Shown here one piece after another: positions 1 to 3,000 of a stretch of 6,257 nt of DNA. Source of the DNA: a virus. Lineage: Duplodnaviria; Heunggongvirae; Uroviricota; Caudoviricetes. The stretch is taken from the IMG/VR virus record IMGVR_UViG_2645727970_000006, one strand, 5' to 3'. How positions within the stretch are numbered: position 1 is the stretch's first letter; every line of letters begins with the position of its first letter. The position numbers were made by a program.

Positions 1-3000
1 TTTATTACGGAACTGTTTTAAAGACCTGCCGGGATTTCGTTATTATCCTGGTGAATAACTTTATCGACCGGGTAACAGTTACCGGGAATTTTCTGTTCGG
101 TTGCTGCAGTCACACACTCCTGCATTGTCCTGTGAACACTGACTGCAATATCAACTGGCTCTCCGGAAACAAGAAAAACTGTCAGAACAAGTGCAAATGC
201 TGTATTCATTGCCAGCATCCTTTTTGTATCGGACGTAAACGGGCCAGCATTGAAAGAATGCATATTTTATTTAATAACTCCCGTTCGTGTTTTCTCTTGT
301 TAATGGCATCTTCAGTAAATACAGGGTTACTGATAGTGACACCAATTTCAAAACAACCTTCAGACGTATTAACGTTTGGTAATAACGTTTCCATTATCGC
401 GTCCTCAACAATGAATTTTGTGATGCGGTGCCTGGTGCCTCCAGGTGACGTTAACCAGTTAACAATTAACGCCGGATACAGAGAATCCACCCATAACACT
501 GTTTTTGGTTTTAACTGTTCCGCGTGCGCTCAGCCGCATTCACCACATCACAAAATTCACTTTAAAAAGGGCGGCAGAGCAGTCACGGAGTAAAACTGAT
601 ACCGCCAAACGTCACCAGAAAATTGATAACAGAGGGCGTTGCAGCGGGGTTGTCACTTAAGCGTATGGTCAACCTGACAACCCGGTGTCCGCAACGGGGG
701 AAGGAATAACCCCGCCATACTTACCGCCGCGCCATTTCGCGGATTGCCACAACCGGAAGCGCACGGTCGACAAAAATTTAACGACAGGCTATCTATGAAC
801 CAGCTACCTCGCCGTGCGCTTTCGCGTTATGGTCTGACTTTTCAGGGAAATATCCTTTCAGTAAACTGTCAGTGCCGGATGCTCACCCGTGTCCGGCGCA
901 AGCACTCCACCTCACCCGTGGAGAACTCCTTAATTACCAACCTTAGCTTCGTTGGTTAGCTATTAACGCGGGTATGTAATCATTCTGGCAATGGTTAATG
1001 CCGCTGCTTTTTCCAGATTGGTGATATCCTGCTCCAGAGAGGACAGATTTTCAGCCTGCTTAGCCCTGACTTCATTAGCCCATTTCAGATCCTGCGCTGC
1101 ATTAATTTTCTGGTGCATCCACTCATAAAGTTCATCATTGGTATAGTCTGGCGCGATGATGACGGGTTCTCGTTTCTGCATACTGATTCCTCGCGGTGCT
1201 GTTTCGCTTATCAGCCATTAGATTTTGCCGAACTGGAAAGCACCTGTTTAAATTCGTTGAAGCTGTGAGCTTCTTCGCCTTCGGCAAGGCCTTCGAAGTA
1301 TTCTTCGTAAGCCTTTTCCATGATTGTGTCGAAATCCATATCACCCACCTGAATTTCTTTCCAGCCAGCGACGCGCTCCAGATTCGGTTTTAAACGTTTT
1401 GCTTTTGGTATACGTCATTGCGGTGAACGTACCGTCCTGGTTGGGGAACACGCCACATACCAGAGATTCGCTGTTGCCAAGATCGATAGTATCCATGCTG
1501 ACCTCATTTCCCCTTAACGCCGGGGTAGCGGAACAAAAACCTGCTGCATAGTTATTAAAGTTGAACCCTGCCGTCATGTTCTTACGCCTCGGGCTGGCTA
1601 CTTAACCCCTGACCACTGCCGGGTAACTCGAAGTATTTCCCTGCGTTCTGTGGGGCGGGGTGGGTTGGTATGTTGTTAAGGTAACAAGAGTTACCTTTCG
1701 AGTCAATACAATGTTGCAAAAGGTACATTTGAGGGCATAAAAAACCCGCAATGAATGCGGGTTCTGACTCAGTCTAAGTATTGATGTATTTGTGAAACTT
1801 TACCTTTAATGGTGTAACCACCATTCAGTTCGATGGGTTTGTAAAGCGGATTCAGTGACAACAAATAGATGTTTGGTCCGTCAATCGCAACTTTTTTTAG
1901 TGTTACGTTTGGCGTTCCTTCCAATTGGATTAAGATTATTTTTCCCACCAGTTCTCTAATGTTACTTGAGCATGGTGTGATCAGCACGGTAGATCCGTCG
2001 GGGATGGTTGGGAGGCCGTTAGAGTTTGTCATCGCATCTCCCTCAACATGCAATAAAAAAGAGTTTTCAGCGGTTTTTGTCATGACATCAACCCAGTTAT
2101 TAATACCAGGAATCTTGGTTACTGGACAACTCATATCCCAATAACCAGCCTGTTCCCACGTTAAAACGGGCAACCGGGCGATGTTGTCACTAATGTAAGG
2201 GTACTGATTCAGACGCAGATCATCGGTTTTATCGTGACAGTCCTTTCCATAAAGAATCCATTCAGGAGATTTGGAAAGCAATTTTGACAGTAGATACAAA
2301 TTCTCACCGTCAGGTTTTGAAGAGCCATTTTCCCATTTTGTTACGGATACACGAGATATGCCGATTGCTTTCGCAACCTGCTGTTGGGTTAATCCAACGT
2401 CTTTTCGACGATTCCGAATACGTTCGCTGATAGTGTTTTTCATGTAACCAATGTTACTACCAAGTGATGTTGCTATGGTTGACATTGTTATGTAACTATT
2501 GTTACCCTTCTGCTCGAAATAACAGGAGAGTTTTATGTTCAAAGATGATGTTCTGCGCTATTTCAAAAAAAAGCGACTAGTAGCTGAGGCTCTTGGAATT
2601 TCACATGTGGCTGTTGTGCGGTGGAAAGCAGTTATTCCCAAACTTCGCGCAATGGAACTGGATGAAATTACTAACGGTGAATTGAAATACAACCCAGAAC
2701 TTTACAAGAAGCAGGATAGCACCTCGAACGAAGGAAAGAATGATTCATGAAAATCAAGCATGAACACATCCGCATGGCGATGAATGTCTGGGCGCATCCG
2801 GACGGCGAAAAAGTACCGGCTGCGAAAATTACCAAAGCGTATTTCGAGCTGGGAATGACGTTCCCGGAACTGTATGACGACAGCCATCCGGAAGCCCTGG
2901 CCCGTAATACCCAGAAAATTTTCCGTTGGCTGGATAAAGACACCCCTGATGCTGTTGAAAAAATGCAGGCTCTGTTACCGGCGATCGAAAAGGCGATGCC

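Follow-up and report, generated by a model that had tools for sequence, protein, structure and literature searches.

In the immC region of phage P22, whose repressor N-terminal domain and Cro protein are, as in phage 21, homologous to those considered here, the right operators OR1, OR2 and OR3 share the core TTAAG-N4-CTTAA, with 23 base pairs (bp) from OR1 to OR2 and 25 bp from OR2 to OR3, and the P22 sequence reads such that the 18-bp OR3 abuts the ATG of the repressor gene c2. In phage lambda, the operators are 17 bp long with a spacing of 24 + 23 bp, and OR3, instead of abutting the repressor ATG, has its centre about 19 bp upstream. Here, we consider a DNA stretch of 6,257 nucleotides (nt) from a virus of the Caudoviricetes (Duplodnaviria; Heunggongvirae; Uroviricota), IMG/VR record IMGVR_UViG_2645727970_000006, which is referred to as the window at its full length. 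The window is a lambdoid prophage immunity region, of which the 1.3-kb immunity segment is identical in many E. coli chromosomes. Positions 2444-2508 are very probably the right operator in a prophage immunity region of the P22 type (immC-like) that has its own specificity, and the palindromes within it are, to judge from sequence comparison, almost certainly the binding sites for the repressor and Cro of an E. coli prophage switch.

The repressor gene (1769-2443, minus strand) and a divergent gene of the P22_Cro family (2535-2750, plus strand) are separated by 91 bp, which contain two perfect copies of the palindrome GTAAC-N4-GTTAC (binding sites are given throughout without a strand). The site on the side of the promoter for repressor maintenance (PRM), GTAACCAATGTTAC at 2444-2457, is OR3-like and directly abuts the repressor ATG, and the site on the side of the right promoter (PR), GTAACTATTGTTAC at 2492-2505, is OR1-like and has a centre consisting entirely of A/T (TATT). 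Their centres, at 2450.5 and 2498.5, are 48 bp apart, as had been noted in the original prediction, which was also right in placing no perfect third copy between them, as the pattern search confirms. Its interpretation of the 48 bp as twice a 24-bp lambda periodicity has to be given up, as the distance is that of OR1 to OR3 in P22, namely 23 + 25. The count of two perfect copies stands for the right operator, but a third perfect copy, OL1 (GTAACAAGAGTTAC, 1681-1694), was overlooked on the far side of the repressor gene, where it overlaps the spacer and -10 element of the left promoter (PL). The window also shares with P22 the core geometry xTAAx-N4-xTTAx, with GTAAC as the half-site in place of TTAAG.

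The three perfect copies in the window compare with none in 200 of 200 dinucleotide-preserving shuffles, and the same three are the only perfect copies in the same prophage of E. coli YDC107 (25.3 kb). When two mismatches are allowed, only scattered extra matches appear, at about the chance rate, and a weight matrix trained on 15 unique strong sites, which is too strict to judge the degenerate middle site and OL2 described below, returns the three perfect sites and two probable chance matches inside genes (2109 and 5299). Related immunity regions were compared in three sets: 20 genome loci with repressors 42-52% identical to that of the window, which represent at least 15 genera (among them Arsenophonus, Yersinia, Buttiauxella, Edwardsiella, Erwinia, Kluyvera, Rahnella, Klebsiella and Celerinatantimonas); six less distant relatives, with 52-88% identity; and the phages ZF40, vB_EcoS-733R5 and AH07. 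Each of these regions has two GTAAC-N4-G(T/G)TAC sites, 48 bp apart, upstream of the repressor gene. For this immunity type, the comparison gives GTAAC-N4-G(T/G)TAC as a testable operator consensus. The proximal site abuts the repressor ATG directly in the relatives, with 1 nt intervening in L115 and 3 nt in L019. Per-column conservation, computed over a set of 31 related regions, all distinct and drawn from more than 15 genera, with repressors 42-88% identical, reaches 1.78 bits per column in the PR-side site and 1.80 bits in the PRM-side site, with 1.28 bits in the middle site, 0.39 in the spacer that follows and 0.28 in the upstream flank, and no insertion or deletion occurs within the 48 bp in any of the 31 sequences. 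Among 80 near-identical IMG/VR copies (15 alleles), 10 of the 100 columns upstream of the ATG are variable, none of them among the 28 columns of the two sites (p = 0.03) or, with the middle site included, among 42 columns (p = 0.003). That the palindromes arose by chance or as a compositional artefact, an explanation with nothing in its favour except the shortness of the half-sites, has a practically negligible probability given the shuffles and the retention of the positions across the 31 distinct regions and many genera. A reading of the palindromes as restriction sites was dropped, as they occur at promoters only and their sequence tracks the recognition helix, and so was a reading as RNA hairpins, for which 5-bp stems are too weak. 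The same half-sites are found once more at 72-82, between dicF and dicB, as GTAAC-A-GTTAC with 1-bp spacing, which may be due to chance or be part of an RNA hairpin.

The repressor of 224 amino acids combines the Pfam domains HTH_3 and Peptidase_S24, and carries the helix S30-R-V-S-V-T-K36-W-E. Its matches in the PDB are lambda cI (3BDN, E 2e-14) and the N-terminal domain of P22 C2 (1ADR/2R1J, E about 1e-12), and it is 36% identical to P22 C2 by tblastn, while the best match in the phage collection is 42% identical. The Cro-like protein (71 amino acids; Pfam PF14549, 59 bits) has the helix SHVAVVRWK and matches the P22 Cro structure 1RZS (E 9e-12), and its ATG is preceded by the ribosome binding site AGGAG (2524-2528, plus strand). 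SRVSVTKWE, the stretch with the recognition helix, does not vary in repressors from 97% down to 42% identity, and the Cro helix S/K-H-x-A-V-x-R/K-W is conserved in all of the GTAAC-type loci for which cro was recovered. P22 and phage 21 recognise the half-site ATTTAAG, while the half-site of the window is GTAAC and three contact residues in the repressor helix are different (R31/T35/K36 versus N32/S36/Q37 of P22), which therefore makes this a different immunity type.

A comparison of immunity types, all of which share the 23 + 25 bp layout, points to the residues by which the specificities may be set. The window and its GTAAC-type relatives have SRVSVTKWE in the repressor and ..AV.RW in Cro. 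A sister group, with repressors 39-42% identical, is formed by mEp390, Stx2c_EH0430 and Yersinia YeP1, in which a site also abuts the ATG but the half-site is GTAGG (GTAGG-N4-CCTAC) and Gly takes the place of the Lys/Arg found before Trp in the window; the repressor helix is (N/S)RVTVTGWE with Cro SHASVSGW in mEp390 and YeP1, and NRVTVTGWE with Cro KHPSVSEW in Stx2c_EH0430. No description of the operators of these three was found in the literature searched. P22 itself combines SNVAISQWE and Cro SDAAVSQW with TTAAG, and Morganella IME1369_02 combines SASAVTQWE and Cro SHSAVCQW with GTAAG (GTAAG-N4-CTTAC). The TA step and the helix valine are constant across the types, and the inner half-site bases go with the residue that precedes the invariant Trp, always in the repressor and with one exception in Cro (Glu in Stx2c_EH0430). 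This residue may be a specificity switch shared by repressor and Cro throughout the P22-like family, with K/R for ..AAC, G for ..AGG and Q for ..AAG. Published work on P22 is in agreement with this tracking: of the 18-bp site, the repressor contacts positions 2-7 and 12-17 but not the central 4 bp (PMC4267663), Val33 packs on TpA steps, and the inner part of the half-site is reached by Gln37 (PMC5175364).

The same comparison bears on whether both proteins use the palindromes. The helices of Cro (SHVAVVRW) and the repressor (SRVSVTKW) differ, so that equal recognition by the two is an assumption, and only one regulator, or another protein such as a host factor, might bind them instead. Against this, the half-site mostly changes with the same helix position in both proteins through three specificity classes (K/R with GTAAC, G/G with GTAGG, and Q/Q with TTAAG or GTAAG, the Glu of Stx2c_EH0430 Cro being the exception), and within 25 kb the sites occur only at the three immunity-region promoters. 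The homologous repressor and Cro of P22 share their operators. A single or foreign binder is, on this evidence, quite improbable, and the palindromes are better regarded as common sites of repressor and Cro.

The statement that the left of the two sites abuts the repressor ATG depends on the start codon; it is correct for the ATG at 2443-2441 (minus strand), and incorrect for the start in RefSeq (PGAP), an ATG at 2485 that lies 14 codons upstream and gives a protein of 238 amino acids. Under the latter annotation, the repressor would begin with MSTIATSLGSNIGYMKN..., the left palindrome would be coding, with the peptide SNIGY conserved by protein constraint, and PRM would be located further upstream. 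Apart from the PGAP call itself, this is favoured by the frame being open in relatives at 66-97% identity, where proteins of 238-240 amino acids are also called. The 14-codon extension, MSTIATSLGSNIGY, is however a literal translation of regulatory DNA, since MST corresponds to the reverse complement of the PR -35 (TTGACAT) and SNIGY to the operator, and its middle part is variable in the relatives at 66-97% identity (IATSLG, ITTPLS, MVTHLG, KVTRIS and EGTQKP). In relatives at 52% identity or less, the extension is missing or interrupted by in-frame stops with the DNA motif still kept, and the same motif is found in non-coding DNA at the left operator (OL). Moreover, the N-terminus that begins at ATG 2443 is co-linear with P22 C2, and ATG 2485 has no Shine-Dalgarno sequence and lies inside the PR -35. 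A coding left palindrome is thus very unlikely, and the comparative data favour ATG 2443 as the start of the repressor. Many database entries other than those of RefSeq/PGAP also start the repressor 14 codons too far upstream.

The promoters proposed for the right operator are arranged around the two palindromes in the manner that had been predicted. By direct reading, the proposed PR has a -35 element TTGACA (2479-2484, plus strand), which aligns with TTTGCT or TTGCTA in relatives, and, after an 18-bp spacer, a -10 element TACCCT (2503-2508, plus strand), which shares its first three bases with the end of the operator. Downstream of TTGACA, the spacer and -10 of this putative PR thus coincide in part with the PR-side site, an arrangement conserved in the relatives, all of which have TACC(T/C)T after the operator, equivalent to a conserved AAGG flank on the repressor strand. 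The putative -10 of PRM, TAACAT (2451-2456, minus strand), lies within the PRM-side operator, whose central ATT is conserved, and is followed by 7 nt (TGGTTAC) and then by the A of the ATG at 2443. Direct reading finds no Shine-Dalgarno sequence upstream of this ATG. Because a -10-like TAACAT is followed by 7 nt and ATG without a Shine-Dalgarno, the maintenance mRNA of the repressor is probably leaderless. The paaR2 mRNA of prophage CP-933P is leaderless by 5' RACE (rapid amplification of cDNA ends; PMC8630535).

Between the two perfect palindromes, the original prediction had expected a middle site to be degenerate or absent, and a degenerate, OR2-like site is indeed present at the position of P22 OR2 (GTTGCTATGGTTGA on the plus strand, 2469-2482), where it overlaps the PR -35. 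Measured from centre to centre, it is 23 bp away from the PR-side site and 25 bp away from the PRM-side site, exactly as is OR2 in P22, where, however, this position is a good operator. On the repressor strand, it reads TCAAC-CATA-GCAAC, which matches 6 of the 10 half-site bases and has as its left half the PR -35 in reverse complement. Better versions are found at this place in relatives, namely CAAAC-AACA-GTTAC (in many cases), TCAAC-CGAA-GGTAC (L108) or TCAAC-CAAA-GTAAC (L106). Whether the window has a functional middle site can be argued from both sides. A right operator of two sites, with a middle position that has lost its function by decay in this E. coli lineage, would be a sub-variant of the P22-type reading and not a contradiction of it; one strong site each on PR and PRM would provide pure repression and negative autoregulation, without OR2-mediated cooperativity or activation of PRM. 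This is suggested by the loss of the TpA step from both halves of the site in addition to its poor match, by its remaining unscored by the weight matrix, by an equally poor site (TCAAC-CATA-ACAAC) in the 88%-identical relative L109, by the perfection of both flanking palindromes, and by the location of its centre near -32.5 from the ATG, which is odd for an activator. Conversely, the middle columns are conserved family-wide (1.28 bits versus 0.39 in the next spacer), many relatives have one half perfect (GTTAC or GGTAC), and no single-nucleotide polymorphism occurs in the 14 middle columns among the 80 close copies, although the conservation is partly due to the overlapping PR -35, which weakens it as an argument. 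P22, which has the same geometry, reportedly uses OR2, in work by Poteete and Ptashne (1982). The two-site form has somewhat less than an even chance of being correct.

The left side of the immunity region is also constructed as in P22, where a terminator, OL2, a TTGACC -35 and OL1 overlapping the -10 follow in this order. By direct reading, the PL of the window has a -35 element TTGACT (1701-1706, minus strand), where TTGAC(A/C/T) is conserved in relatives, and, after a 17-bp spacer, a -10 element TACCTT (1678-1683, minus strand), whose TAC is the end of OL1 and which is TACATT or TACCTT in relatives, so that OL1 is positioned relative to PL as the PR-side site is to PR. OL2 (GTTGCAAAAGGTAC, 1713-1726), with a good GGTAC half and a poor GTTGC half, is located immediately before the PL -35, at 32 bp from OL1; its identification in the window is by position only, and relatives have at this place a site with 0-1 mismatches, 31-35 bp from OL1. 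In most relatives, one to three such sites are located 40-130 bp past the repressor stop codon, in the order terminator, OL2, -35 and OL1. The intrinsic terminator after the repressor gene, a hairpin with a U run at 1739-1764 (minus strand), folds with -16.7 kcal/mol (z = -3.95; 0 of 200 shuffles fold as well), and a hairpin with a T run is found in its place in the relatives too. It was missed by a generic terminator scan of 1500-2800, and a sub-threshold Rfam match to Trp_leader at 1736-1829 (26.5 bits) was rejected as being this same hairpin. From their sequence and arrangement, OL1 and the weak OL2 are read as the OL/PL control region at the head of the leftward operon ydfA-ydfB-ydfC-dicF-dicB.

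Left of the repressor gene are found, on the minus strand, a DUF1391 (ydfA-like) gene, ydfB and ydfC, and downstream of ydfC the full-length small RNA DicF (569-620, minus strand; Rfam RF00039, 76.7 bits), with the start of dicB at the left edge of the window. As DicF is located downstream and dicB starts at the window edge, the leftward operon predicted to be controlled by OL/PL is the dicBF cell-division-inhibitor operon. Immediately downstream of DicF, a sub-threshold Rfam match to the small RNA STnc100 is seen at 362-571 on the minus strand (38.7 bits against a gathering score of 47). Furthermore, at about 1575-1612 (minus strand), 70-110 nt downstream of PL, there is a conserved stretch AAGTAGCC(A/G)..CC..AGGCGTA(A/T)GAA, which is kept in the relatives L003-L021 with repressors only 42-52% identical, and which overlaps a possible ribosome binding site of the ydfA-like gene and the start of its long form (1577). 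In some relatives, the boxA-like CGCTCTTTAACAA is seen downstream of PL instead of this stretch.

To the right of cro, the gene for YdaT, the equivalent of CII, occupies 2747-3172 (plus strand) and is followed, also on the plus strand, by replication genes, DUF1627 and DUF977. YdaT of the window is 100% identical to the CP-933P protein in PDB entry 8bt1. A YdaT box, ATGATTCATGAAAATCAA (2740-2757), is located at the cro/ydaT junction and has one mismatch to TTGATT-N6-AATCAA, the sequence on which CP-933P YdaT was footprinted (PMC9986795). The box probably marks a promoter for establishment, from which transcription would run back in the direction of the repressor gene. Because CP-933P shares YdaT but not the repressor/Cro module, a mosaic joint can be placed at about the cro/ydaT junction. 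The window ends on the right with an IS1 end at about 6135-6257, which at least 5000 plasmid records match with the annotation IS1 family transposase; IS1 is inserted just after the DUF977 gene, where YDC107 has other genes.

Several described systems resemble the window in part. Lambda has divergent PR and PRM overlapped by operators, as proposed for the window, and, like the window, an S24 C-terminal domain in its repressor and a second operator set at PL; its cI transcript is leaderless, as predicted for the window's repressor, but its operator sequences are unrelated. P22 differs from the window, in addition to the half-site and the middle site, in having gene 24 (N) with a nut site where the window has the leftward ydfABC-dicF-dicB operon; in the window, moreover, the equivalent of CII is YdaT and the catalytic Ser of the repressor is Ala. 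The Qin DicA/DicC region shares the operon ydfA-ydfB-ydfC-dicF-dicB beside a repressor/Cro-like pair; the window repressor, however, is of the two-domain cI/C2 type, while DicA is a protein with a helix-turn-helix domain only and different operators. In CP-933P of E. coli O157:H7 (PaaR2, YdaS, YdaT), which has the identical YdaT and a YdaT box at the cro/ydaT junction, PR, PRM and PL are each under repeated operators, and the repressor gene has no leader (PMC8630535). The consensus of the CP-933P repeats is GTTTAGTAA (PMC8630535), as opposed to GTAAC-N4-GTTAC in the window, and the repressor PaaR2 is small, without an S24 domain, and followed by a toxin-antitoxin pair, whereas the window has an S24-domain repressor. 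Neither PaaR2 nor the GTTTAGTAA repeats are found in the window, and the two prophages share only the module right of cro. No description of a GTAAC-N4-GTTAC operator was found in the searchable literature, which did not cover an older survey of Cro half-sites (Hall/Cordes 2005); the sole string match was rejected as an unrelated HcpR/FNR-type site. The window thus contains a P22-type immunity region with a specificity not found described, and the design itself is classic for P22 and lambda.

A number of observations weigh against the assignment of 2444-2508 as a P22-type right operator, and should be considered alongside the conservation. The long repressor annotated in RefSeq would turn the left site into coding sequence. 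The -10 elements of PR and PL match the consensus at only 3 of 6 positions, PRM has no -35 recognisable in the sequence, and a generic sigma-70 scan of 1500-2800 returned no promoter above threshold, owing to the weakness of the -10 elements proposed for PR and PRM, for which such a scan has little to say; the promoter assignments thus rest on position and conservation and not on consensus strength. The middle site with its 6 of 10 bases and OL2 with its one poor half are both undetected by the weight matrix. Since lambda cI activates from about -42, a middle site that would be centred near -32.5 from a PRM start at 2443 is not in the classical activating position, and positive autoregulation cannot simply be assumed. 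The ranking of operators by A/T content of their centres, used below, is borrowed from a P22 repressor that is only about 36% identical. Finally, binding, order of occupancy, cooperativity and transcription starts are all inferred from sequence.

The mechanism proposed for the switch follows from these comparisons. The cI/C2-type repressor and the Cro-like protein would, each as a dimer, recognise the 14-bp core GTAAC-N4-G(T/G)TAC, with the helix-3 valine (V32, corresponding to P22 Val33) reading the TpA step, and with the residue that precedes the invariant Trp (K36 of the repressor, Arg of Cro) reading the inner half-site bases. Repressor on the PR-side site would shut off cro, ydaT and the replication genes, possibly with help from the middle site, which would be filled probably only cooperatively, if at all. 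Occupation of the PRM-side site would block PRM and thus provide negative autoregulation. Repressor on OL1 and OL2 would block PL (TTGACT-17-TACCTT) and keep ydfA-ydfB-ydfC-dicF-dicB silent. Cro would use the same sites as the repressor, and establishment would probably proceed via YdaT. P22 repressor prefers A/T-rich uncontacted centres, with dissociation constants of 4.3 nM for A-tract, 14.4 nM for 9T and 57.6 nM for 9C (PMC4267663), and because of this preference the PR-side site (TATT) is predicted, by analogy, to be filled before the PRM-side site (CAAT) and OL1 (AAGA), an order that would lead to the usual course of events.

A further property of the repressor concerns its induction. At the position of the S24 nucleophile, it has Ala137 (codon 2035-2033, minus strand), in the context VEGDAMT versus EGNS149MT in lambda. 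Of the Ser-Lys dyad and Ala-Gly site of RecA-stimulated self-cleavage, the cleavage site Ala99-Gly100 and Lys183 are retained and the Ser is absent. The alanine is present in the window, in 80 of 80 close copies and in the relatives at 88% and 70% identity; a serine is found in the relatives at 87% and 66% and in all of the more distant ones (52% or less). The mutant LexA S119A offers an analogy for the loss of self-cleavage. Because the catalytic Ser is replaced by Ala137, the repressor should be unable to cleave itself, and hence should not be SOS-inducible by that route. From this replacement, the decayed OR2 and the restriction of perfect operators to PR, PRM and PL comes a joint reading, namely that the locus is a domesticated lock and not a working lysis-lysogeny switch, combined with a one-position rule of specificity, which we regard as tentative and rather unlikely to hold as a whole. 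If true, it would mean pure repression with tight negative autoregulation, the toxic dicB/dicF kept off, and no SOS induction via self-cleavage.

The immunity segment is widespread in bacterial chromosomes, with at least 80% of 1500-2800 held by 702 of 5426 complete genomes, while a nucleotide search of phage genomes matched only the flanks, and no isolate with the immunity region was in the collection searched. The consensus therefore describes the operator of an immunity group that is without a sequenced phage isolate in that collection and yet occurs in about 13% of the complete E. coli genomes, with related versions across the Enterobacterales and in the aphid symbiont Hamiltonella. The analysis also corrects the annotated start of the repressor, and predicts the promoter that controls the dicF/dicB cell-division-inhibitor operon in these strains. 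As the design is the classic one of P22 and lambda, the finding is of use without being surprising; the GTAAC type and its sister types, GTAGG and TTAAG, form a natural series in which the specificities of repressor and Cro would have changed together on a fixed scaffold.

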